From positions 1-52,155 of IMG/VR virus record IMGVR_UViG_3300043411_001021: 52,155 nucleotides of DNA; one strand, written 5' to 3'. Position 1 is the first letter of the stretch; every line of letters starts with the position of its first letter. The DNA comes from a virus. Its lineage: Duplodnaviria; Caudoviricetes. This document shows, piece by piece, positions 1-52,155 of the stretch. Below the pieces are notes generated by a model. The model saw only the letters and a list, made by a program, of their open reading frames with translations. It was not told the origin of the DNA and made no database searches. Position numbers and translations under genes: made by a program.

Positions 1-20
1 TATCTAAGGAGAGTAACTAG

Positions 21-173
21 ATGGACGAAAACCAGTTAAACCAAGTGGGGCAACATTTGAGTGATGGCGTACCACACCAACATGGTACTCATTGGGTATG
101 TGCAGAACAGCTAGAAAAATACGGTAGTGACGCACGATGTTGTGAATGTACCGACCACGAATGCGAGGACTAG
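21..173 (+). CDS. Small Cys/His-rich hypothetical protein (50 aa)
   Basis: Manual translation MDENQL...HGTHWVC...RCCECTDHECED*; SD AAGGAG upstream. Confidence 0.7.
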   Translation: MDENQLNQVGQHLSDGVPHQHGTHWVCAEQLEKYGSDARCCECTDHECED

Positions 174-263
174 ATGAAAATTATAGATTACATATTCTTT
201 ATAGGCTTAATATGGTTTATATGGCCTGACATTAAACAGCGATGGAAAACAAGAAAGAAGTAA
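174..263 (+). CDS. Small single-pass membrane protein (29 aa)
   Basis: MKIIDYIFFIGLIWFIWPDIKQRWKTRKK*; abuts neighbours stop-to-start. Confidence 0.6.
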   Translation: MKIIDYIFFIGLIWFIWPDIKQRWKTRKK

Positions 264-470
264 ATGATGAATGAACTAACGGAACCAGCAAATAGAACAC
301 TTAAACTAATCAAAAACTTATGGTCTAATGGACCTGGGTACATCGGTTGCTGCCCCGAAGATGGGACAATCTTGTTAGGTAAATCAGGTGATAGTGAATG
401 GGTGGAGATACCTAAACATATTGCTGATCTATTTAGTTTTGACGTTGAGGTATCCGAGGAGAGTAACTAG
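264..470 (+). CDS. Hypothetical protein
   Basis: ORF in the cassette chain, ending in the junction motif. Confidence 0.7.
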   Translation: MMNELTEPANRTLKLIKNLWSNGPGYIGCCPEDGTILLGKSGDSEWVEIPKHIADLFSFDVEVSEESN

Positions 471-1694
471 ATGGACAAAACAAAATTATTGTTAGGCGAT
501 TCGTTAGAAACACTCAAAACACTAGACGCAAACTCGATAGACGCTATGGTAACTGACCCTCCAGCAGGAATTAGTTTCATGGGTAAAACATGGGATTCAC
601 ATAAAGGTGGTCGTAAAGAATGGATAGCTTGGCTTTGTGAAGTTATGGAAGAAGCGTTACGTGTTTTGAAACCTGGTGCTTATGGGTTAGTGTGGGCTTT
701 GCCGAGGACTTCTCATTGGACTGGTATGGCTTTGGAAGATGCAGGTTTTGAGGTCAGAGATTGTGTGTATCATCTGTTCGGTTCAGGCTTCCCTAAATCA
801 TTAAACGTCGGGAAAGCTGTGGATAAGTTGCAAGGCAACGAACGCGCTGTTGCTCCTCCGAAACAATTTGCGGATGGCACAACACAAAGGGCTACCGCTA
901 GGGCGGGGATTTATAGTGAGGAAAAAGGCCAAGCGGAAAACACGGTTGGCACAGGCGTTTGGGAGGGTTATGGTACAGCATTGAAACCTGCTGTGGAGTG
1001 TTGGTGGCTAGTCCGTAAACCTTTAGCTGAATCTACTGTTGCTAAGAACGTTTTGGAGTACGGTACAGGCGCACTCAACATAGAGGCGAGTCGAGTAGAC
1101 GGACAACCACGGAGAACACACGGAGATAAGAACTGGTCTAGCAAAGGAGATAGTAACCATGAAATCTTTTCAGGTTTTGGAGATCGCTATGAAGCACCGA
1201 TGCCCGCTGGTCGTTGGCCTTCTCATCTTATCCATGATGGGTCAGACGTAATCGTAGAACAATTCCCTAACGATAGCGCAAGGTTTTTTTATTGTGCTAA
1301 ATCGTCGAAAGTGGAACGTAACGCTGGGCTAGACGGATTTGAAGAAAAAGCAAGAATAGATTATGGCGGTTCCCATAGTGAACAGGGTTTGATAAATAAT
1401 AATCGTAATCCTGAAAATCGAAAACCTACAAAAAATAATCATCCGACTGTGAAAGCTCAAGCGTTGATGCGTTATCTATGTAAACTTATAGCTCCACCAG
1501 GTACACCTATTATTCTTGACCCGTTTATGGGTTCTGGTAGTACAGGTGTCGCATGTAAAGCTTTAGGATATGATTTTGTTGGTATAGAACTCGACGCAGA
1601 ATATCTAGAGATAGCTAAAGCACGTATCGACCATGCGAAACCTTTAGAGGTTGTGGAACAGTTAGATATTTTGAAACAACAGGACAGTGACTAG
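471..1694 (+). CDS. DNA amino-methyltransferase (N6A/N4C, beta class)
   Basis: TDPPAG motif IV variant, RVLKPG, HPTVK, C-terminal LDPFMGSGSTG SAM-binding motif. Confidence 0.92.
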   Translation: MDKTKLLLGDSLETLKTLDANSIDAMVTDPPAGISFMGKTWDSHKGGRKEWIAWLCEVMEEALRVLKPGAYGLVWALPRTSHWTGMALEDAGFEVRDCVYHLFGSGFPKSLNVGKAVDKLQGNERAVAPPKQFADGTTQRATARAGIYSEEKGQAENTVGTGVWEGYGTALKPAVECWWLVRKPLAESTVAKNVLEYGTGALNIEASRVDGQPRRTHGDKNWSSKGDSNHEIFSGFGDRYEAPMPAGRWPSHLIHDGSDVIVEQFPNDSARFFYCAKSSKVERNAGLDGFEEKARIDYGGSHSEQGLINNNRNPENRKPTKNNHPTVKAQALMRYLCKLIAPPGTPIILDPFMGSGSTGVACKALGYDFVGIELDAEYLEIAKARIDHAKPLEVVEQLDILKQQDSD

Positions 1695-1850
1695 ATGAAC
1701 CGTAAATCTATAGATATAGCAATACTATTGCTCATGTATGGGCTTTATATTGCAGGGCTAGTAGCTTCCGAGAGTCTATATCAGACAATATTGTTGATTT
1801 TCGTTGCTTCAATCTGGTTGGAACTATCGGACAAACAGAGGAGTAACTAG
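1695..1850 (+). CDS. Small membrane protein (51 aa, two hydrophobic segments)
   Basis: MNRKSIDIAILLLMYGLYIAGLVASESLYQTILLIFVASIWLELSDKQRSN*; bounded by junction motifs. Confidence 0.7.
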   Translation: MNRKSIDIAILLLMYGLYIAGLVASESLYQTILLIFVASIWLELSDKQRSN

Positions 1851-2051
1851 ATGGAACAGTCGATAACATTGCAACAGTGGGAAGATCTAAACCTTCTAGT
1901 TTTTAGCCTGGTTACTGGTAAGAAAAATATAGAACCGGATCCAAAACTTGGAGCTATTAACGCTAGTGATTTTTGTAACGCTATAGACGTAGGTAAAGCG
2001 TGTGTAGATTTGCTGAAAGTTTTGAATCTTAAAATAAAAAGCGTAGATTAA
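1851..2051 (+). CDS. Hypothetical protein
   Basis: ORF with SD GAGGAG inside the junction motif. Confidence 0.7.
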   Translation: MEQSITLQQWEDLNLLVFSLVTGKKNIEPDPKLGAINASDFCNAIDVGKACVDLLKVLNLKIKSVD

Positions 2052-2101
2052 AAATTGGATAATAGTAGCAGAAAAACATTTTCCGAAGTTTACCTTTCTA
2101 T

Positions 2102-2130
2102 TTGCTATGTAAATACTTTTAATATATAAT
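2102..2130 (+). promoter_or_regulatory. Sigma70-type promoter
   Basis: TTGCTA-17 nt-TATAAT. Confidence 0.7.
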
Positions 2131-2159
2131 TAAAATTAAAAAAGAAAACGGAACAACAA

Positions 2160-2495
2160 ATGACACAGAAAACATATTTAAGTAGTGACCTAGAAGACAT
2201 ATTAGATATATCATATCGACAACTAAATCTTTGGTCTAGTAGTGGTATTATACCTAATCAAACTGATATTGGACCTGGTAACAGGCGTAAGTTTACACTA
2301 AGCGATATAATCATAGCTTGGATAGCAAAACAAATGTTTGCTATTGGTTTTCGATCTAATATAGTTAGATTAGTTGTTAAAAACCCTCCCAGTTTCCCAA
2401 TACCTGAAAATAATATTACATACAGCATTGATAACATTACCTTTAATTTAGACTGTAGTGATTTACACCAAAGACTGACACATATATCATGGTAA
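2160..2495 (+). CDS. MerR-family HTH DNA-binding protein
   Basis: DLEDILDISYRQLNLWSSSGII...GNRRKFTLSDI pattern. Confidence 0.8.
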   Translation: MTQKTYLSSDLEDILDISYRQLNLWSSSGIIPNQTDIGPGNRRKFTLSDIIIAWIAKQMFAIGFRSNIVRLVVKNPPSFPIPENNITYSIDNITFNLDCSDLHQRLTHISW

Positions 2496-2830
2496 GCGGT
2501 GATGCACAATATCAACGACAACGCGCACATCAAAAAAGACAAGAACAGGCGCAAGAACTAATAAAGTGTCTAGAGTGTGATCTCGAATTTATTAGGGTAG
2601 GGTCACACGTTGTACAAGTGCATGGGTATTCTAATACGGCACAATATAGAAAAGCTCACGGCTTAATGGCTAGGGAGACTTCTACAACAGAGCACAAAGA
2701 GAGGATGAGATCTTTAAACACATCATCAAAGAATCTAGAGGCTGGAAAACATAACAGGTACCACATAGGTGGCAACCACGGCAAAAACTTAACTGAATTT
2801 TGGAATAATAGGCGTAGAAACAAAATTTAA
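2489..2830 (+). CDS. Ros/MucR-like zinc-finger protein
   Basis: IKCLEC...SHVVQVHGY...QYRKAHGL matches the MucR finger pattern. Confidence 0.65.
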   Translation: MVSGDAQYQRQRAHQKRQEQAQELIKCLECDLEFIRVGSHVVQVHGYSNTAQYRKAHGLMARETSTTEHKERMRSLNTSSKNLEAGKHNRYHIGGNHGKNLTEFWNNRRRNKI

Positions 2831-2886
2831 TTTGACTTGCTAATTGAGATAGTTCCTATTAGTATTTAAAATAAAAAGAAGTACTC

Positions 2887-3939
2887 ATGATAGACATAAA
2901 TTTATACAATAAATACGTAGAAGATAAGTTAGTCACAAGACGCGAACATAACAACGGTGATTTACTAATTTGGAACTACACCCCCCGCACACAATTCTCT
3001 CGTGCTTGGGATGACGTGACAATGATGTGTCGAGGGTTAATTACTAATAGAGAAGGTGAAATCATTGCTCGACCTTTTAAGAAGTTTTTTAATTATGGAG
3101 AAGTGGGCGATAACATTCCCGAAGGTGGATTTTCAGTCACAGAGAAGTTAGATGGTTCTCTTTTTATATTAGCAAAACATAACAACGAGTACATCACAGC
3201 TACACGAGGGTCTTTTTATTCAGACCAAGCAAAAAAGGGTAGAGAGATTCTAGATAGATACGTACAAGAATATGGTAATTTATATTTAGAAGGTATCACA
3301 TATTTATTTGAAGTAATTTATCGTGAAAATAGAATTGTCGTAGATTACGGAGATGATGAGAAGTTAATATTAATTGCAGCAATCAACACTGAAACTGGTG
3401 AAGAGTTAGATATTAAAACTTGTCCACACCCTGATCGCGTTACATATCACGGGGATATGGAAACTTTTGAACATCTTATTGCTAATGCGGGGGCGGAAAG
3501 TAACCGTGAGGGGTTCGTTATCCGTTATTCAGATGGCACACGTCTTAAATTAAAGTTTGATGAGTATTGCAGACTACATAAAATCATAACAGGAGTTAAT
3601 AAGCACCGGATTTGGGAGATTTTAAAGGCTGAGGATAGTTTAGATGAGTTACTGGAACTTGTCCCAGATGAATTTTATAATTGGGTGAAAGAAACAGTAA
3701 ATTACTTTAAAAAAGAACACTATATGTTAAAACAGGAAGCACGCTCAGTATATGTATGTGTACAGGATCTCCCAACACGTAAAGAACAAGCACAAGAGAT
3801 CTTTAAAACAATACACATACCTGTGATACGTTCGTGTGTATTCCTACTTTTAGATAAACGTGATAACGAAGTTGACACAGCTATTTGGAAAGCATTAGAA
3901 CCTCACGGTGATGAAAGACCTTTTAAGGAGGAAGTATGA
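2887..3939 (+). CDS. T4 Rnl1-like RNA ligase
   Basis: CRGLI, ARPFKKFFN, EKLDGS (motif I), TRGSF, EGFV, LKLK. Confidence 0.93.
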   Translation: MIDINLYNKYVEDKLVTRREHNNGDLLIWNYTPRTQFSRAWDDVTMMCRGLITNREGEIIARPFKKFFNYGEVGDNIPEGGFSVTEKLDGSLFILAKHNNEYITATRGSFYSDQAKKGREILDRYVQEYGNLYLEGITYLFEVIYRENRIVVDYGDDEKLILIAAINTETGEELDIKTCPHPDRVTYHGDMETFEHLIANAGAESNREGFVIRYSDGTRLKLKFDEYCRLHKIITGVNKHRIWEILKAEDSLDELLELVPDEFYNWVKETVNYFKKEHYMLKQEARSVYVCVQDLPTRKEQAQEIFKTIHIPVIRSCVFLLLDKRDNEVDTAIWKALEPHGDERPFKEEV

Positions 3940-4289: not shown

Positions 4290-4540
4290 TAATAGACTAT
4301 GTAGATTTCACACACATAGATACACCTTTTACGAGGAGACGTGAGTTAGATGTGGGAGATGTTTTTATCAATCAAGGACAATGTAAAGCGTGTGGTTGGG
4401 TCATAAGATCTAAAAACAGACATAACTATGTGACCTGTAATTGCGGAGAATGTAGTATAGATGGTGGAAGTTGGTATGTAAAATATAGTGGACCTTTGGG
4501 GTTACACACCGTTTATTATAATGATATAGAGGAAAAATAA
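4286..4540 (+). CDS. Zinc-ribbon hypothetical protein
   Basis: CKACG..IRS..RHNYVTCNCG...IDGG phage Zn motif. Confidence 0.75.
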   Translation: MIIDYVDFTHIDTPFTRRRELDVGDVFINQGQCKACGWVIRSKNRHNYVTCNCGECSIDGGSWYVKYSGPLGLHTVYYNDIEEK

Positions 4541-5400
4541 TGACAGGTAAATTAGTGATGATGCGTGGGCTGCCTGGTAGTGGAAAAAGTACTTATGCAA
4601 AGGAACTTGTAGGAAAAGGATTTGTTCGGATATGTAAAGATGACCTTCGTTCTATGATGAGCAACGGAGTCTGGAACGGTAAACGTGAGAAACGTGTAGT
4701 TCGTGTTCGTGATTTTATTATTCGTGACGTTTTGGAATCGGGCGGAAATGTTGTTGTAGATGACACTAATTATAATTGGGAAGATCATTTACGCGGGTTG
4801 GCTTCGGAGTACAGCGCTAAGTTTGAAGTGATAGATGTTGACACAGATGTTGACACATGTATTAAGCGTGATCTTGCGCGTGAAAACTCTGTTGGAGCTT
4901 CTGTTATTTGGAGGATGTATTACGAACACGTTTCTCCTCCTGAGAAATATGTCGCTCCAGAAGGATCAATGGAGGTTATATTATGTGATTTAGATGGAAC
5001 TCTAGCACTCATGAATGATGAGAATAATTCTCGTTCCCCTTATGATTGGGAGCGTGTAGGAGAAGATGCTGTTTGTCCTGCAGTTAGTTATATAGTACAC
5101 CAAATACAATCTGGTTATGAGTCTCGACCCGTGATACTTGTTAGTGGACGTGATGAAGTTTGTCGTAGTGAGACAGAAGCTTGGTTGGAAAAACATGATA
5201 TAGAATATAAAGCTTTGTTTATGCGTCCTGCTGGTGATAAGCGAAAAGACACAATTGTGAAGCGAGAAATATTTGACCGAGAGATTCGTGATAAGTATGC
5301 TGTGTTATTTGTCTTGGATGATAGAATTTCCGTGTGCCGTCAATGGTACGGAATGGGATTGCCTTTGCTTCGTGTTGGCGATCCGGATGCGGATTTCTAG
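4540..5400 (+). CDS. pseT: Polynucleotide 5'-kinase/3'-phosphatase (T4 PseT-like)
   Basis: GLPGSGKST P-loop; HAD DLDGTL, SGR, LFMR..GD.RKD..VK, DDR. Confidence 0.95.
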   Translation: MTGKLVMMRGLPGSGKSTYAKELVGKGFVRICKDDLRSMMSNGVWNGKREKRVVRVRDFIIRDVLESGGNVVVDDTNYNWEDHLRGLASEYSAKFEVIDVDTDVDTCIKRDLARENSVGASVIWRMYYEHVSPPEKYVAPEGSMEVILCDLDGTLALMNDENNSRSPYDWERVGEDAVCPAVSYIVHQIQSGYESRPVILVSGRDEVCRSETEAWLEKHDIEYKALFMRPAGDKRKDTIVKREIFDREIRDKYAVLFVLDDRISVCRQWYGMGLPLLRVGDPDADF

Positions 5401-5409
5401 GAGGTTAAT

Positions 5410-5676
5410 ATGAAAGATTGTTGTGCAAAAATGTATCTTCACATTAAAGAATGTGAGTTTGGTTATAAGGGTGATGATAATATAGTTTTTACTGATGTTG
5501 TTATTAATTCTTTGAGAGAAAAGGGCTACGTCGATGGGAAGATTTTAGATAAAGTCTTAGATCGTGTTGCTTGGTTAGAACGAGAGTATTTTAAAGCTGG
5601 ATTTTTGCGTAAAGAGTTACAGGACAAAAATAATGCTTTGGTATCATCTTTGAAGCAACTTGCAGGTGATGTGTAA
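5410..5676 (+). CDS. Hypothetical protein
   Basis: SD GGAGG, in operon. Confidence 0.7.
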   Translation: MKDCCAKMYLHIKECEFGYKGDDNIVFTDVVINSLREKGYVDGKILDKVLDRVAWLEREYFKAGFLRKELQDKNNALVSSLKQLAGDV

Positions 5677-6428
5677 TGGCGTTTGCTCCTCGTGAGATGG
5701 TTCCTGGTATTGACTTTGTATATGGTGCATTGTCTCCTTCTGAAACCCCCCTCGTTGTTGGTCTTGTTGGGTCTGTGGCGTATGGGTTGGATGTATCGGA
5801 TTCGGATAAGGATTATTTGGGTGTGCATTATGTGGATGTTACTCGGCTGTATGGCTTTGGTGCTGTAGATTTGTTAAAGACGTCACGTGTACGTGGTGGT
5901 CCAGACTTTTGCTCACATGAGATACATAAGTTTTTGACATTAGCATTAGGGTGTAATCCAACTGTTATTGAACTTTTGTTTTTAGATGATTATGAGTATG
6001 TGTCTTCGGATTTTTTAGAGTTGATAGAGATGCGTTCGGCTTTTCTTTCAACTAAAAAAGTGCGTAATGCTTATGGTGGCTATGTTTTAGGGCAAGCTAA
6101 AAGACTTAAGTCGCGTGTAGATTCTGGGTTAGAAGGTTTTGATCCCGATTTAAAAAAGAGAACAAAGAAACATGCAAGGCATTGTTTCAGATTGCTATTT
6201 CAGTGTGAAGCTTTGTTAAGAACCGGAGAAGTTGTTATTGATGTTTCGGATATTCGAGAAGAAATTTTCGAAGCTGGGGAAATATGTGTTCGAGATGAGA
6301 GTGCGTTTTTTGATTTGATTGTTGAAAAGGTGCGAAGTTTAGATTCTGTGGAAAGCGTGTTACCGCTGTATGCGGATCGTGACAGGATTGAAGATTGGTT
6401 AATTGAATTTAGGAGAAATCATGCGTAA
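5676..6428 (+). CDS. Pol-beta superfamily nucleotidyltransferase (RlaP/YcgL-like)
   Basis: GSVAYGL...SDKD motif, NPTVIELL, KHARHCFRLL. Confidence 0.88.
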   Translation: MAFAPREMVPGIDFVYGALSPSETPLVVGLVGSVAYGLDVSDSDKDYLGVHYVDVTRLYGFGAVDLLKTSRVRGGPDFCSHEIHKFLTLALGCNPTVIELLFLDDYEYVSSDFLELIEMRSAFLSTKKVRNAYGGYVLGQAKRLKSRVDSGLEGFDPDLKKRTKKHARHCFRLLFQCEALLRTGEVVIDVSDIREEIFEAGEICVRDESAFFDLIVEKVRSLDSVESVLPLYADRDRIEDWLIEFRRNHA

Positions 6429-8029: not shown

Positions 8030-8803
8030 ATGGGGGATATGTCAGATAGAAAAATTTGTGCTCTTTTTTATGGTAGAGCAAAAACAGGAAAAACTACGTT
8101 AGTAGATACAGCACCAGGCCCCCGTTTAATTTTAGATGCTGAAATGGGATCAGACTTTTTAACATCTGAACAAGTTATTTGGGATATTGAAAGTGGTGCA
8201 GAGTGCCCTACAGATTTAGATGAAGATACTACAGTTGTTATCTATGTTCACGAATACACCACTTTAAGTAAAGTATATGACTTCCTAGACACTGGTAAGC
8301 ATCCATTTAAAACAGTCATTATTGACTCTGTAACAGAGATCCAGCAGAGATGTTTAGATGATAAAGTTGGAACAGCAGCTATAAGGATACAGGATTGGGG
8401 AGAAATTAAACGTCAAATGAGTTTAAATATTCGTAATTTTAGGGATCTAAAAGCACACCCAACAAAGGCAGTTAATGTGCTTTTTGTTGCTACTTTAGAA
8501 GAAGTAAATAACCCTGATGGAAGCGTTAGATTAATTCCATACATGCAAGGTAGTGTTTCAAAAGAGCTTCCTTATGTAGTTGATGTAGTGGGACTTCTAT
8601 ATATTGACCGAGAAGATAATAAAACTCGTAAACTTTATGTTGGCACTAGATCCGACACAGACACTGGTGATAGAACTGGATATCTTTCTGAAGAAATTTC
8701 CAGTCCAGATGTGTTTGAAATTCTCAATACCATAGAAGCTGGAGCAATAAAAGCTAAAGCGGAACGTAAAGAAAAACGAGCTAAACTCTTAGCTAATAAA
8801 TAA
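8030..8803 (+). CDS. AAA_24 / Sak4-like ATPase (ssDNA annealing/recombination)
   Basis: YGRAKTGKTT Walker A, ILDAEMG, VIIDSVTE Walker B, QDWG. Confidence 0.85.
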   Translation: MGDMSDRKICALFYGRAKTGKTTLVDTAPGPRLILDAEMGSDFLTSEQVIWDIESGAECPTDLDEDTTVVIYVHEYTTLSKVYDFLDTGKHPFKTVIIDSVTEIQQRCLDDKVGTAAIRIQDWGEIKRQMSLNIRNFRDLKAHPTKAVNVLFVATLEEVNNPDGSVRLIPYMQGSVSKELPYVVDVVGLLYIDREDNKTRKLYVGTRSDTDTGDRTGYLSEEISSPDVFEILNTIEAGAIKAKAERKEKRAKLLANK

Positions 8804-8830
8804 TAAAATAAAGAAAAGGAAGAGGAAAAA

Positions 8831-9298
8831 ATGGCAAACATCTCATTTGCGGATATCTTGACAGAAAGCGATATTAAACTCGCAGAAGAACAAGTTGAAT
8901 TTAAACTACTAGATGCTGGCGAATACGAATGTGAAATCGTAAAAGCAGAAATTGGTATGTCAAAAGCGGGAAATACTAAAATTACTTTAACATTAGAATT
9001 AGAGGGTAGTAACCGAAAATTGTGGTACATTTTAAACTTTTCTGATAACGAGAAGAGTCGTGCAATGACTATGCGAACATTAAAAGGTATTGGACTAGAT
9101 GCTAAAGATCTAATTGCTTCTAAAGCAGATCCAGAAGCTGTTTTTGTCGGTAAAAGAGTAAAAGCTACGGTTGAACAAAGTACTTATGAGGGTAAAACTC
9201 GCAACAATGTTAAGTGGATAAACCCTATTAGCGGTGTTGACTACACAACAGACCTGGTAGCAGCTCCTAGTACGACACCGCCAGCTTCGCCCTTTTAA
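8831..9298 (+). CDS. DUF669-like single-stranded DNA-binding protein
   Basis: AGEYECEIVKAE..SKAGN, YEGKTRNNV, C-terminal PF; follows AAA_24. Confidence 0.8.
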   Translation: MANISFADILTESDIKLAEEQVEFKLLDAGEYECEIVKAEIGMSKAGNTKITLTLELEGSNRKLWYILNFSDNEKSRAMTMRTLKGIGLDAKDLIASKADPEAVFVGKRVKATVEQSTYEGKTRNNVKWINPISGVDYTTDLVAAPSTTPPASPF

Positions 9299-10449: not shown

Positions 10450-10670
10450 ATAGTATCCTCATCAATTATGATAATGGATTCTTCCTCATCTAACGTGATA
10501 TCTTTTAGATAGCGCAATAATAATTTACCTTGCTCATAGACTTTATTATTTATGTCAGATAAATCAGAGGCATCTTCTACAAATAATCCCCCGGAATCAT
10601 TCACTGCTTGCCAGTAAATCTTCTCCGCAATCTCGCATATTCTAATTTCTTGTGAATCATTAAAGTCCAT
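10446..10670 (-). CDS. Hypothetical protein
   Basis: Coupled ORF. Confidence 0.7.
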   Translation of the reverse strand: MDFNDSQEIRICEIAEKIYWQAVNDSGGLFVEDASDLSDINNKVYEQGKLLLRYLKDITLDEEESIIIIDEDTI

Positions 10671-11574
10671 CCGTACCCCCTACGTATCTGGCGTTAACAT
10701 CATGTTTTGTATAGTTTCCTTTTAAGTAACCTTCTATGTCAGAACCATCATCACAAAGACCACATGCCTGTAAGAATGGACACTTCCAAGTACAATCTAC
10801 AGTAACATGAGGATATGCTGTACTATATGGATCATAACCATCGTCTAATTTATTTTTTAATTTTAAAATATCATTTGCAATAACACGAAGTCTTTTAGCG
10901 TAGTTATCGGTCTCTAACTCAGTGTGTCTAACAAATTCTCGTTGTATAATATTTGCAGCTCTAGTTGTTTTTACTTTTTTAAAAATATTCAACATTGCGC
11001 CAGATAGTCGGTCTTCATTGTTTTCTCTGTACAAAAGCATATAACCTAGTAGTTGTCCGTCTAGATGTGCAACTTGAATTGCTTGTGTTGGACTCTTATA
11101 AGTTTTATGGTCAACTACAAGTCGTGAACCATCACTTTCTCGCTCAACGACAGCATCCATTTTACCTCTAAAGATAATACCTTCATCTAATTGCATTGAG
11201 TATTCAGCCTCAGCAGCTACGTAATTTAGACCATAGTCAAGTCCTTCTTTTTCAACTTTATCCATGTAATAATCTACAAGAAAAAAACTACTTTTCCTAT
11301 CATCAGCATACTTTGCCATATCTCCGCCAGCACTAGCAACTAACGGCTCTTCTTTAGCATATATTGTTCTTATAGCTTCGCGTGGATTAACTCTCGCAGA
11401 TTCATCAGGAATGTACCAGCCCTCTAATGCTTCATGTATACGTGTACCATATGTTAAAGGCGTTGTCTGTTCTGAACCATCATCTTTTTTCTTTAATCCA
11501 AGATAATATGAGAAATACCAACGCCTAGGGCAGTCGAGGTATGTATTAATTTCACTGTTTGATAGATAAAGCAC
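10660..11574 (-). CDS. PD-(D/E)XK RecB/Cas4-like exonuclease
   Basis: [38 protein letters not shown]-terminal CTWKCPF...C. Confidence 0.9.
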
Positions 11575-12136
11575 GTTTCTCCTTAGCAGCTAAATAAGCC
11601 TTTGAAGCTTCCTCAGCCGTTTTAAAATTACCCAATGTTATAAGTTTTTTATTAATAGTAATACGCGCAACAAAACTATTTTCAGATGTTTGTCTCACAC
11701 CTGTAAATCCTGCTTTATTTGGAGGATATGTCTTATTTATAGATTGTTCTTCATTTGTTGCCCACCTGCAATTTTCAGGACAATAATCCCCATCGTTATC
11801 AATACGATCTAAACTTCTATTTTTAGGTATTGGCCCCATATCTTCTAAAAAATTAGGGAATCCTTTATCACCTAACCATCTATCGCATACTTTAATTCCA
11901 CGTCCACCATAACGGTAGTAATATTGTTGATTTTCATTTTTACATCTACTGACCATGGAATGCCATATATTATACGTATGTCTTTCATTTAAAAATGATC
12001 TATTTATTTTCATAATATTAGGATCACCATGTATATGATACCTTTGGTAATGCTTATTACAAAAACCCTTACAGTGTTTTTTAGACACACAACCTTCTAC
12101 AGAGCAGAAGTTATTTGATAGGAATATTTCTTCCAT
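11552..12136 (-). CDS. HNH-AP2 homing-endonuclease-like protein
   Basis: [33 protein letters not shown]-terminal AP2-like [10 protein letters not shown]. Confidence 0.88.
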
Positions 12137-15042: not shown

Positions 15043-15352
15043 TATCTAATAAGAAGTTACAGAATGATTGAAGCGAACTCGTATCTCGCAATTTTTCTCT
15101 AGTACTTTGTTGTAATGCTCTTTTAGGTTTTTCAATAGCTTCTAGCTCGATACATTCTTTTAACATATCTAAAGCTTCTTTTTCATCTATAAATAAATGT
15201 ATTTCAGTTACAAAAGGTGTGCACCTTCCTTGTCCGTAAAAAGCGTATTCCCAAACACATAGACGACTGTCATACACTGCTTGTTTTATGATTCGTTTTT
15301 CACATTTACGACCATCAACATAAAAAACTTCTTGTCCAAGACTATATTTCAT
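14996..15352 (-). CDS. Hypothetical protein
   Basis: ORF with SD GGAG. Confidence 0.7.
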   Translation of the reverse strand: MKYSLGQEVFYVDGRKCEKRIIKQAVYDSRLCVWEYAFYGQGRCTPFVTEIHLFIDEKEALDMLKECIELEAIEKPKRALQQSTREKLRDTSSLQSFCNFLLDNDLYSDWICRGNNSM

Positions 15353-16118
15353 TTGTTGAATCTCCGTTCACATAATAACCTAAGTATTTTAACTCAGCTT
15401 CTTTTCGAGCAGTTACTGCGTCTTCATAAGTGTGGTATGTTTTGTGTAAAACTTCTTTTTTATTAATTTGTAATCTAGCTACCCATCGACCTTTCCCGCG
15501 ACAAGATGATTTATCCCAATACACTCCAGGTGTTTTATTATTATCTCTTCTATTAACAGCTTGCTCATTTTTTGTTGCCCACCTGCAATTAGCTTCCCAA
15601 CCCTCAGCAATACACTCAGAACAATGTCCACAACTATAATTCATATCATTATCTATACGATCTATAGAGTATTTAGAAGACGGTCTTTCTCCCATGTCAT
15701 TTTTCCAATTTGGAAATCCTTCAAGACCCAACCAATACTGACAAACTTTTATACCTCGTCCTCCCCAATTATCATAATTTGGGTTTGAGATACTATAGCA
15801 TCTTGACTTCATACATTTATAAGTCATATAAAGAGGATCTTTTTTTCTACCTTCATTCATGGCTATTTGCATAAAGTGAGGATCTCCAGATCTTTTCCAT
15901 CTACGATAGTGTATGCTACAAAAACCTTTTGGGAAAGACACTATACCTTTTCCGTTTGTTACACCACCATGTTTACAATTTTCTATAGAACATTGAGTAG
16001 GTGGTATATAATTTAATGAATCAATCTCACCACTTTTTCTTTTCTCTCGGTAATGTTTTTTACAATAGCCTTGCGCTACATGTTTTTCACTACACTTAGG
16101 TATTTCACAAATTCTCAT
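15342..16118 (-). CDS. HNH-AP2 homing-endonuclease-like protein
   Basis: Two CxxxxC..C.xHY modules, [16 protein letters not shown]...NCRWAT, AP2-like tail. Confidence 0.88.
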   Translation of the reverse strand: MRICEIPKCSEKHVAQGYCKKHYREKRKSGEIDSLNYIPPTQCSIENCKHGGVTNGKGIVSFPKGFCSIHYRRWKRSGDPHFMQIAMNEGRKKDPLYMTYKCMKSRCYSISNPNYDNWGGRGIKVCQYWLGLEGFPNWKNDMGERPSSKYSIDRIDNDMNYSCGHCSECIAEGWEANCRWATKNEQAVNRRDNNKTPGVYWDKSSCRGKGRWVARLQINKKEVLHKTYHTYEDAVTARKEAELKYLGYYVNGDSTNEI

Positions 16119-20236: not shown

Positions 20237-20308
20237 ATCACTATAGGACAATGGTTAGTCCGCTTGGTTTTCATCCAGGAAATCAGAGTTCGATTCTCTG
20301 TAGTGATA
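20237..20308 (+). tRNA. tRNA-Glu(TTC)
   Basis: ATCACTA/TAGTGAT acceptor, CTTGG-TTTTCAT-CCAGG anticodon arm, GTTCGATT T-loop; followed by CTA, not CCA. Confidence 0.92.
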
Positions 20309-20458
20309 CTAGTGTGGTATAATATATACCCACGGTGAGAAACCTACGCCTTAAGTAAGTAGTTAGTATTGCCGTACTTTTTAAAAAAGAAAGGCTATAT
20401 CGTGAATACATACTCAAGCCCTTCCATCTGTTGTTACCCCTTGCCCAGTTATTAATAC

Positions 20459-20533
20459 GCACACTTGGTGAAGTGGTAACACAATGATCTGCAAAATCAT
20501 TATGCATCGGTTCGATTCCGATAGTGTGCTCCA
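20459..20533 (+). tRNA. tRNA-Cys(GCA)
   Basis: GCACACT/AGTGTGC acceptor, ATGAT-CTGCAAA-ATCAT anticodon arm, encoded CCA. Confidence 0.93.
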
Positions 20534-20607
20534 CTGGATATAGCTCAATTTGGTAGAGTACTCGGTTTGGAACCGAGGGGTTGTAAGTTCAAATCTTGCT
20601 ATCCAGA
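20534..20607 (+). tRNA. tRNA-Pro(TGG)
   Basis: CTGGATA/TATCCAG acceptor, CTCGG-TTTGGAA-CCGAG anticodon arm, GTTCAAAT T-loop; followed by CTA. Confidence 0.93.
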
Positions 20608-20649
20608 CTAAAACTTTCTTTAATATAAAAAATAAACTATACTTATTAT

Positions 20650-21340: not shown

Positions 21341-22027
21341 TTGAAAGATTTAAACGATCAAATTTCAAACTACACAGACTTTAACTCATGGCTTATTAAA
21401 AAACGATATGAGCATCTCTCTAGATATTTTAGAGGAGATACTTGCTTAGAAATGGGATGTGCAGATGGTTCTGGTACTGTTATCTTAAATAATTATTTTA
21501 AAGATTTAACAACAGTAGATGGAAGCTCTACTGCAATATATGAAGTTGGTAAACTGCTTCCTAAGATTAAAAGACATTTCTCAAGTTATGAAACAATGAA
21601 ATTTAACACTAAGTTTGACACAATTGTTCTGGCGCATGTGTTAGAACATGTTGATAACCCACAAACTGTCTTAAAAAAAGCTAAAGAACATCTTGCACCT
21701 GGTGGAGTTTTAATTGTCGATGTTCCTAATGCAGATAGTCTACATAGACAGGCTGGTGTTGAACTACATTTATTAGATCGTATAACAGATTTAAATGAAA
21801 CAGATATCTCAATAGGACATAAACGAGTTTATACGCAACACACTTTTTATGATGAGCTTCGTGAATTGAACATGATTATCTCTACCTTCGGGGGTATGTT
21901 TATAAAAGTAGTTTCAAATAAACAAACTGAAGAATTATTTAGTGAAGAACAACTAGATGCTTTTTTTCAAGTAGGTGTTAATAATCCACACGTAGCTGCT
22001 GAAATCTACGGAGTCTTAGAAAAATGA
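21341..22027 (+). CDS. Class I SAM-dependent methyltransferase
   Basis: LEMGCADG, VDGS, FDTIVLAHVLEHV, LAPGGVLIVDVPN; TTG start assumed (track start 21275). Confidence 0.9.
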   Translation: MKDLNDQISNYTDFNSWLIKKRYEHLSRYFRGDTCLEMGCADGSGTVILNNYFKDLTTVDGSSTAIYEVGKLLPKIKRHFSSYETMKFNTKFDTIVLAHVLEHVDNPQTVLKKAKEHLAPGGVLIVDVPNADSLHRQAGVELHLLDRITDLNETDISIGHKRVYTQHTFYDELRELNMIISTFGGMFIKVVSNKQTEELFSEEQLDAFFQVGVNNPHVAAEIYGVLEK

Positions 22028-51744: not shown

Positions 51745-52155
51745 TTAAAAAGTTCCGCCATCTAGCTCTAGCTTGGCTGCTAGTGGACCAATAGACATCG
51801 CATATTGTTGCACCAATGGATTGCCGCTAGCATCAGTCAGTAATGAGTTGCCGATGGTGGCATACATCTGTGTATTCTTCTGCGTGTGGGTAAGTGCTGG
51901 CAACGCATCAAATGCAATAAACTCATGCCAGGCTTCATTATAGTATATTTGTGCTTTTACTGGTGAGCTAGAATGGTCAATTCGTATCCCTCCATCTTCA
52001 GTTCTAGATGAACCTTCCAATACTAGGTTGGCAATATTGTTGTCAGTAATAGAATTGTCGTTATAGCCTAGCTTATCGTTGTTCCGCATTGGTCCGATGT
52101 CTGGATTAGCTGATGTCTCAGATAGTGGCAAGCTGGCTTTATTCCAGTTAGTACC
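51745..52155 (-). CDS. Virion-associated protein, 5'-truncated by the window edge
   Basis: Frame is open to 52155; ends LDGGTF. Confidence 0.6.
   Translation of the reverse strand, partial: GTNWNKASLPLSETSANPDIGPMRNNDKLGYNDNSITDNNIANLVLEGSSRTEDGGIRIDHSSSPVKAQIYYNEAWHEFIAFDALPALTHTQKNTQMYATIGNSLLTDASGNPLVQQYAMSIGPLAAKLELDGGTF

Follow-up and report, generated by a model that had tools for sequence, protein, structure and literature searches.

A repeated ribosome-binding, stop and start linker as a probable joint for gene shuffling in an uncultivated tailed phage

The window analysed here is the entire IMG/VR record IMGVR_UViG_3300043411_001021, one 52,155-bp contig of an uncultivated virus. 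Near its left end it carries an array of six abutting genes (positions 21-2051), and between several of them recurs a short sequence, here called the linker, in which a Shine-Dalgarno (SD)-like core, a stop codon and a start codon are combined. Comparison with natural relatives shows genes that, to judge from the sequences, have been gained, lost and swapped at the linker, and the linker probably has a dual role, acting as a translational joint and as a patch of short homology through which genes are shuffled. For a metagenomic case the evidence of such exchange is good, and the mechanism set out below is what we infer from it.

The gene array and its linker

Six plus-strand open reading frames (ORFs) abut at 21-173, 174-263, 264-470, 471-1694, 1695-1850 and 1851-2051, each ATG following directly on the preceding stop codon. 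Since the gaps are zero the ORFs also share one frame, and the two features are one property, not two. The junctions are of the TAG/ATG type at 171, 468, 1692 and 1848 and of the TAA/ATG type at 261; an extra TAG/ATG at 18-23 ends an upstream ORF that is truncated by the contig start. The zero-gap chain of six ORFs given in the preliminary description of this DNA is borne out over 21-2051 at 5/5 junctions. The gene calls used for comparison were our own crude set of 82 ORFs, with two small array ORFs added by hand. In this set zero-gap junctions account for 5/5 in the array against 2/65 same-strand junctions elsewhere (Fisher p = 1.7e-6), the non-array same-strand junctions including 4-nt overlaps (6), 1-nt overlaps (9), other overlaps (16) and gaps (32). 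Stop codons in the array are TAG (4) and TAA (2), and those elsewhere are TAA (54), TGA (13) and TAG (11). The G+C content is 47% in ORF21 and 44% in the methyltransferase gene, against 36% for the genome. The parts of the array, including one segment that is replaced in the metagenomic relative L143 described below, are as follows.

1-25, plus strand: linker copy 1, with tail codons (..SKESN), SD-like AAGGAG at 6-11, stop TAG at 18-20 and the ATGGA of ORF21
21-173, plus strand: ORF21, 50 amino acids (aa) with 5 Cys and 5 His, ending ..HECED and TAG; GAGG at 165-168 lies 5 nt before the next ATG
174-263, plus strand: ORF174, a 29-aa hydrophobic peptide whose tail is basic; its stop TAA abuts ATG 264 in a junction without the motif
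264-470, plus strand: ORF264, 68 aa, an ORFan with relatives in metagenomes only; its tail ..VEVSEESN is encoded by linker copy 2
444-480, plus strand: linker copy 2, with tail codons, GAGGAG at 456-461, a 9-nt spacer, TAG at 468-470 and the ATGGAC.. of the methyltransferase gene
471-1694, plus strand: N6/N4 DNA methyltransferase, 407 aa (PF01555, E = 1.6e-26; phrog_67, E = 1.1e-54)
1058-1211, plus strand: segment replaced within the methyltransferase gene, from the identity profile of L143 and from Logan contigs; a mosaic border away from the linker
1681-1700, plus strand: linker variant between the methyltransferase gene and ORF1695, with AGGA, a 10-nt spacer and TAG/ATGAAC
1695-1850, plus strand: ORF1695, 51 aa, in which two stretches are hydrophobic; linker copy 3 encodes its tail ..DKQRSN
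1837-1855, plus strand: linker copy 3, with GAGGAG at 1838-1843, a 7-nt spacer and TAG/ATGGA
1851-2051, plus strand: ORF1851, an ORFan of 66 aa that closes the chain, ending in TAA before a 108-nt gap
2102-2130, plus strand: promoter-like site after the array, ahead of the next gene (2160), with 10/12 consensus matches, a consensus match only

The methyltransferase and the two hydrophobic peptides (ORF174 and ORF1695) are thus as first described. Homologues of the methyltransferase align from residues 1-6, and its scores against the NCBIfam adenine-specific models fall under their cut-offs. For the small array ORFs no family, atlas or structural match was found.

The 15-mer GAGTAACTAGATGGA occurs exactly at three sites (11-25, 461-475 and 1841-1855), and linker copies 1-30 and 451-480 are identical at 27/30 positions; this last figure had been reported before, as had the plain TAA/ATG at 264, and both are correct. 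The accompanying claim that five starts are preceded by the motif or a variant was generous, as the full motif is present at three junctions, the junction before 1695 departs from the 16-mer core at 2/16 positions and the one before 174 shares just GAGGAC and TAG/ATG with the linker. A scan of the whole window with the 16-mer, allowing up to 3 mismatches, gave 5 sites against 0.68 expected, and 0/100 shuffles reach 5. Four of the five sites lie in the array; the fifth, at 21944, has 3 mismatches and lies away from gene junctions. All linker copies are on the plus strand and within the accessory gene block. The hexamer TAGATG by itself is found 78 times on both strands of the window, against 33 expected from shuffles, and only the array copies stand at gene borders, so this genome-wide excess is not a junction signal; outside the array it may reflect codon usage.

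The anatomy of the linker is that of a translation initiation region. The distance from the end of an SD-like hexamer to the start codon is 9, 9 and 7 nt for ATG 21, 471 and 1851, GAGG ends 5 nt before ATG 174 and AGGA ends 10 nt before ATG 1695, while before ATG 264, where the linker motif is also missing, no SD-like core was found. A stop/start gap of 0 nt at 5/5 internal junctions is thus accompanied by a GGAG/GAGG/AGGA core 5-10 nt upstream at 4/5 of them and at the junction before ORF21. The RNA of the junctions folds no better than shuffles (z from -0.74 to +1.48) and has no Rfam match, and none of the 12 promoter-like and 2 terminator-like sites in 1-3000 is located at a junction. In IMG/VR the exact 16-mer occurs once each in 12 unrelated viral contigs (L001-L012), in about 8 distinct contexts, and in 12/12 of them directly before an open frame of 70-578 codons. 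These contigs were considered as relatives of the phage and rejected on account of their single copies and unrelated contexts; by these matches, the 16-mer is in repeated use among other phages as well, as a ribosome-binding and start sequence. An extended 23-nt linker gave 0 matches in the viral contig collection and 0 in the genome contig collection. Given the SD/stop/start arrangement, the lack of structure beyond that of shuffles and the 12/12 open frames in IMG/VR, the role of the linker as an initiation region is well grounded.

Gene gain, loss and exchange in natural relatives

The most informative relative is L143, a metagenome contig of 1,584 bp with 2x coverage found in one metagenome scan. 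It differs from the window by 5 mismatches over 445-1057 and by 4 over 1212-1729, and is unlike it upstream of 444, the left edge of linker copy 2, and from about 1730, which is 35 nt into ORF1695. Between its near-identical flanks a stretch of the methyltransferase gene, about 1058-1211, is replaced, and because of this difference inside the gene L143 is another strain. The alternative version of the stretch is also found among the assembled contigs of two public runs, X12 (joint 1084 to 1207) and X16 (loose end 1207). The swap of about 150 nt may concern the target-recognition part, and thus the methylation specificity, of the enzyme.

In front of the methyltransferase gene, on its 5' side, L143 carries another gene of 65 aa, ORF99, which resembles ORF264 in the last 17-26 residues only. 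The end of ORF99 (L143 277-301) equals window 1-25 at 25/25 positions, though the next gene is the methyltransferase in one case and ORF21 in the other, and the linker would accordingly be shared between L143 and the window by descent, not by convergence. A further relative is seen in P0049, a 146-aa gene call that reads ORF99, Q, ORF21, Q, ORF174 and through which copies of ORF99 and ORF21 cluster. Whether the gene caller translated TAG as Q or the stops have been substituted, the call shows the order ORF99, ORF21, ORF174 in a relative. In-frame TAG/ATG chains such as this can mislead gene callers that test a TAG-recoded code. As the window is the whole record, sequence before base 1 is not readable, and since window 1-20 matches the end of ORF99 at 20/20 positions and P0049 gives the gene order, the gene truncated before base 1 is taken to be ORF99.

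With this gene in place, the order in the window lineage is ORF99, linker, ORF21, ORF174, ORF264, linker, methyltransferase, and that in L143 is ORF99, linker, methyltransferase. Because ORF99 of L143 ends in the copy-1 linker and P0049 places ORF21 after ORF99, the lineages appear to differ by a three-gene indel of 450 bp (ORF21, ORF174 and ORF264) that is bounded by two direct copies of the linker. L143 keeps a single copy, having the left-hand variants of copy 1 and the right-hand gene of copy 2, and this is what a cross-over within the 20-nt identical core would be expected to leave. A second type of tail and joint, with an overlapping ATGA, closes the gene that precedes ORF99 in L143 (55-102). 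Over its first 13 nt this second joint is identical to the tail of ORF264 alleles of the ..ELVEES type, and its peptide is found again at the end of a form of ORF99 present on 44 contigs; more than one joint family circulates in the variable block.

Close relatives were found in metagenomes only, with none in IMG/VR, GTDB genomes or GenBank phages. The best IMG/VR match of the methyltransferase has 57% aa identity over the full length and that of the RNA ligase 44-46%, neither being a near relative, and IMG/VR scans with ORF264, ORF1851 and ORF99 gave no near relative either. When 10 window ORFs were compared by tblastn with 142 loci, only the methyltransferase and the RNA ligase matched. ORF99 has no relative in genome contigs, and in GenBank phages identities reach <=38% for the DNA polymerase and <=45% for the methyltransferase.

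The protein sequences of relatives vary at the same place. Four clusters of ORF264 contain 49 member sequences, of which 37 were read and 35 belong to the family. In these 35 sequences the cores are near-constant and the tails fall into seven types, namely ..SEESN (5), ..SKESN (4), ..SEESD (5), ..PKEIE (13), ..ELVEESD (4), ..ELIEESD (3) and one other. For six of these seven tails there are sequences of both N-terminal types, and therefore head and tail of ORF264 have been repeatedly reassorted. ORF99 ends in ..VEVSKESN or in ..VEVSKESD, except that the form present on 44 contigs has a tail resembling the one on the L143 gene upstream of ORF99. In the 112-aa protein P0063 a copy of ORF1695 continues in frame into another gene, of 60 aa, which replaces ORF1851. 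The variety of ORF264 and ORF99 tails, together with P0063, implies that the coding portion of the linker, formed by the tails, moves between genes. Alleles of ORF1695 are present in proteins of relatives, near-identical copies of ORF21 occur in metagenomes, and the same ORF1851 protein is encoded on 15 contigs. Stop-less junctions exist in the relatives P0002 (93 aa), P0029 (upstream of ORF264) and P0063, giving in-frame fusions of 93-112 aa; as the genes abut in frame, the loss of one stop fuses neighbours.

The array or part of it is contained in 20/24 listed public runs, from 11 studies of wastewater, activated sludge and fresh water, with some runs coded as organisms. Logan contigs of four of the runs (X1, X12, X16 and X19) were aligned to 1-3000 at 85% likeness, and yielded a list of at least 16 break points in the array (30, 79, 174, 176, 263, 293, 442, 462, 846, 963, 1084, 1207, 1681, 1700, 1828 and 1839), with 7 loose ends and 53 pieces outside the listing; the data are contigs and not reads, and the uncovered parts of 1-3000 in X16 and X19 (beyond about 1900) were not counted as absence. 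Eleven of the 16 break points lie <=30 nt from a junction, a zone that makes up 17% of the length (binomial 7e-6), and 8/16 lie <=15 nt from one, against 8.8% of the length (2e-5). Contigs diverge at 442 and 462 around linker copy 2, at 1828 and 1839 around copy 3, and at 1681 (X16) and 1700 (X12) at the linker variant 1681-1700. The Logan contigs are indexed by words of 31 letters, which is also the word length of the Logan assembly, and as the exact core of the linker (20-25 nt) is shorter than these words, mis-joins through it are unlikely.

Several of the divergent contigs continue into other genes. In X19 an ORF264 allele is followed by the linker and 10 nt of the next ORF, and then by a gene that resembles neither ORF21 nor the methyltransferase. 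In X16 an unrelated gene with the tail ..VSKDSD is followed by a hybrid linker, its left half as in copy 1 and its right half as before ORF1695, and then by ORF1695; ORF264 of the same run leaves the window at 462 and is succeeded by another gene via an overlapping stop/start. Other genes are also present after ATG 174-176 in X12 and X19. In one X12 contig the window sequence breaks off at 462 and resumes at 1681, with the stretch between them marked as not known; this is no more than a hint of methyltransferase loss. No joint that would match a 470-to-21 circle is among those listed for the contigs of the four runs, in which mini-circles were not sought.

The preliminary description had proposed a standardised joint that supplies the ribosome-binding site, stop and start and gives homology for shuffling. 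The gain and loss break points in relatives, when compared with the motif, support this: the 450-bp indel lies between copies identical at 27/30 positions, hybrid linkers occur and tails are reassorted. Gene order in relatives differs at the linker, and the motif is more frequent than expected by chance (5 sites against 0.68).

Proposed mechanism and alternative explanations

In the mechanism that may explain these data, the array would belong to a variable accessory-gene block whose members are connected head to tail through a lineage-specific module of about 25-35 nt. On its left the module takes in the final 5-9 codons of the gene before it, with tails such as ..VEVS-K/E-ES-N/D, and within these codons lies the SD-like A/GAGGAG; on its right it has a 7-9-nt spacer ending in TAG, the immediate ATG and one to three opening codons of the gene that follows. 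In its first role the module would supply each downstream gene with a ribosome-binding site and a stop/start abutment, and the chain is probably translated by termination and re-initiation, a coupling suggested by its anatomy. Since the same sequence recurs between unrelated genes, it is also a short-homology patch, and in this second role the repeat could pair co-infecting relatives or two copies in one genome. Whole genes would in this way be deleted, inserted or exchanged, with the upstream gene always terminated and the downstream gene always started correctly.

The exchange may be carried out by the phage's own Sak4-like annealase, SSB and exonuclease, the first two of which form a candidate recombination machinery at 8030-9298.

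8030-8803, plus strand: Sak4-like annealase (phrog_124, E = 9.5e-42)
8831-9298, plus strand: SSB-like gene, directly after the Sak4-like gene (phrog_378, E = 5.5e-13)
10660-11574, minus strand: exonuclease, a possible single-strand annealing partner (phrog_1218, E = 1.5e-38)

A sak4 gene adjoining a distant ssb is the usual arrangement according to the passages covered of PMC5928155, and phage annealases are described, in the parts consulted of three papers, as recombining short, diverged sequences and making mosaics (PMC3945230, PMC5499656, PMC8093625). The homology role of the linker is consistent with this published work on annealases and mosaicism, as far as the excerpts of PMC3945230 and PMC5928155 go. 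A stronger proposal, to be held tentatively, is that the joint is a selected, translation-ready cassette device by which lytic phages with annealase-type recombinases would trade small accessory genes without an integrase. Under such selection the tail codons would be retained only as homology, and the loss of a stop would yield ready-made fusions, as in the relatives.

Some of the observations weigh against a special role of the linker in recombination. L143 has four mosaic borders, three of which (about 1058, 1211 and 1730) fall within genes, 5/16 break points (79, 846, 963, 1084 and 1207) are far from any junction and one contig diverges at 263, the sole junction without the motif. The coverage of L143 is 2x, so that a mis-join is possible, and the gene before window base 1 is a reconstruction. 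Moreover, because 12/12 IMG/VR copies precede open frames, selection for translation alone could hold most of the 16-mer, and gene borders are where selection lets any break point survive. From this follows the view that the linker is a translational signal only and a bystander, with general or illegitimate recombination producing the break points and selection leaving those at gene borders. To it can be credited the 16-mer standing before long open frames in 12/12 unrelated contigs, the mosaic borders within genes, the break at motif-less junction 263 and the lack of structure in junction RNA relative to shuffles (z -0.74 to +1.48), which is as expected of an initiation region. It is nevertheless judged unlikely, though it has to be taken seriously, since the identity exceeds the needs of translation, extending through the tail codons in the 25/25 match of L143 to window 1-25 and to a shared GTTGAGG further upstream; since two direct copies flank the 450-bp difference, one copy being left in L143; and since X16 has a hybrid linker and 8/16 break points fall <=15 nt from a junction, against 8.8% of the length. 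An explanation of the shuffling as an assembly artefact, by which the assembly of mixed populations would have mis-joined or interrupted contigs at a short repeat, could appeal to the start of the window contig in the repeat, to the 2x coverage of L143 and to the run evidence consisting of contigs throughout. It is highly improbable, given an exact core of 20-25 nt, below the 31-letter Logan words, variants spread across studies and years (20/24 listed runs, 11 studies), the status of L143 as another strain by its methyltransferase differences, and the same reassortment of tails and heads in independent protein calls from many contigs.

The dual role of the linker has also to be set against two readings of its stop and its SD. 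If TAG were read through or recoded, the in-frame chain would be made as fusion proteins or a polyprotein, and the single frame, the 4/6 array stops that are TAG (11/78 elsewhere), the Q at two junctions of P0049 and the stop-less fusions P0002 (93 aa) and P0063 (112 aa) could be understood in this way. However, no suppressor tRNA is present among the three tRNAs found (Glu, Cys and Pro), one junction is TAA, each TAG is directly followed by ATG with an SD 5-10 nt upstream, the polynucleotide kinase gene ends with TAG at the end of its family profile (positions 3-294 of 295), long conserved genes are uninterrupted with methyltransferase homologues aligning from residues 1-6, and P0049 is most simply the gene caller's choice of code. 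Recoding retains hardly any credibility and was rejected on the tRNA set, the TAG at the polynucleotide kinase profile end and the ATG and SD at TAG junctions. Alternatively, the linker beyond the SD may be a site for a regulator of early mRNAs, either a translational repressor or an endoribonuclease cutting in the SD, for which T4 RegA and RegB are precedents. Such a site is compatible with a recombination role, and would account for a motif confined to one operon of small genes and conserved past the SD core; in the passages covered of PMC3203893 the comparable SAS motif has yet to be assigned a function. This is regarded as quite improbable, because no candidate regulator was found among 78 proteins, there is no conserved RNA structure or Rfam match, and the linkers of relatives vary in spacer and even in stop/start type, the ..PKEIE tail having an overlapping start.

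The phage genome and comparison with known systems

PHROG scans of 78 proteins (9 + 69) identified the virus as a tailed phage, with genes for DNA polymerase, helicase and a pair of RNA ligase and polynucleotide kinase, and for the tape measure, major tail and head-tail adaptor proteins, holin and endolysin. It is apparently an uncultivated lytic siphovirus, and by the metagenomes and public runs its habitat is wastewater, activated sludge and fresh water. Three tRNA genes (Glu, Cys and Pro) are located at 20237-20608. No integrase, terminase large subunit, portal or capsid gene was found among the 78 proteins scanned against PHROGs, in a record that is incomplete, so that an integrase could lie outside it. 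With terminase, portal and capsid missing, and with a minus-strand ORF (51745-52155) running off the far contig end, the record is an incomplete fragment and the array may extend before base 1; for the same reasons the contig was rejected as a closed circle. The contig start falls exactly in a linker copy, and the methyltransferase contigs of relatives are often just 1.2-1.6 kb long; assemblers break contigs in this way where flanks vary in the population.

Right after the array follows an RNA-repair-like module comprising a T4 Rnl1-like RNA ligase (2887-3939), a polynucleotide kinase (4540-5400) and a nucleotidyltransferase (5676-6428). Two HNH endonuclease genes on the minus strand (11552-12136 and 15342-16118) are inside the replication module, one between the exonuclease and helicase genes and the other adjoining the DNA polymerase gene, and may be homing elements.

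Among described systems the nearest are the promoter-early stem-loops (PeSLs) of T4-type phages and the SAS motif of mycobacteriophages. In the parts covered of PMC2839356 and PMC4122927 the PeSL, like the linker, is a short conserved regulatory module between small ORFans in a variable region; genes of relatives are flanked by two copies against a single copy (PMC2839356, in the portions consulted), as in the window against L143, and in both systems, by the same partial accounts, the module brings an expression signal, so recombinants stay expressible. As described there, a PeSL is an intergenic promoter and terminator of about 100 bp, whereas the linker is about 25-35 nt long, mostly coding, and carries translational signals. 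It is thus three to four times shorter, and no promoter or stem-loop was found at the junctions. The linker would work like a PeSL without being one, and may be seen, by analogy, as a translational counterpart of PeSLs.

The SAS/ESAS motifs of Cluster K mycobacteriophages are asymmetric, contain AGGAG and stand a few nt upstream of ATG, as the linker does; they also share with it a single orientation, a restriction to non-structural genes, a place before different gene families and the occasional inclusion of the upstream stop (PMC3203893, passages covered). By the positional description of SAS (3-7 bp upstream of ATG, one orientation, non-structural genes) the linker is alike, since it reaches the ATG and its SD core ends 5-10 nt before it. 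According to the same excerpts, the 13-mer SAS consensus is unrelated to the linker, AGGAG alone being common to both, and SAS is spread over half a genome without a strict zero-gap stop/start, while the linker is in one chain; no role in gene exchange is proposed for SAS in these passages of PMC3203893. Ordinary translational coupling (ATGA, TAATG) similarly has stop and start within a few nt and the SD in the upstream gene, and the rest of the genome uses such overlaps. Ordinary coupled junctions, however, share 4-5 nt, whereas the linker shares 15-30 nt between unrelated genes and phages.

Integron arrays resemble this array in their one-directional, small, promoter-less and exchangeable genes with a recurring site between them. 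They differ in having a tyrosine-recombinase integrase (IntI) beside the array and attC sites, imperfect inverted repeats folding as hairpins, as the 78 proteins include no integrase and no attC-like fold was seen with RNA parameters. The earlier characterisation of the chain as an integrase-free cassette array is therefore a fair analogy, although the array is not of the integron kind, and its exchange is apparently by homology and not site-specific as in integrons. Closer in principle are the conserved gene-boundary sequences of phage mosaicism, in which short shared border sequences direct exchange, as here (PMC3974807, in the parts consulted), and phage annealases tolerate short, diverged homology (PMC3945230, likewise in part). 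In the portions covered, boundary-sequence cases are mostly temperate phages with Rad52-like recombinases, whereas this phage is apparently lytic, has a Sak4-like protein and uses one defined repeated joint. A literature search, with supplements outside its scope, found no SD-stop-start repeat described as a recombination joint, PeSL and SAS being nearest. By comparison with these systems, the principle of modular shuffling at a repeated expression module has precedent.

The array offers a natural example, with many metagenome variants, of a lytic phage exchanging single small genes without an integrase. Because the recombination patch is itself the translation signal, recombinants are expressible by construction. 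Joints of this kind could mark the fast-changing accessory genes of uncultivated phages, and the genes of the array, including the methyltransferase with its swapped segment, the membrane peptides and the ORFans, are likely candidates for host takeover or anti-defence functions. The 25-nt element and the annealase/SSB pair make the conserved boundary sequence model of mosaicism directly testable. If the proposed role is true and similar joints elsewhere work alike, they would constitute a general, homology-based phage counterpart of the integron.

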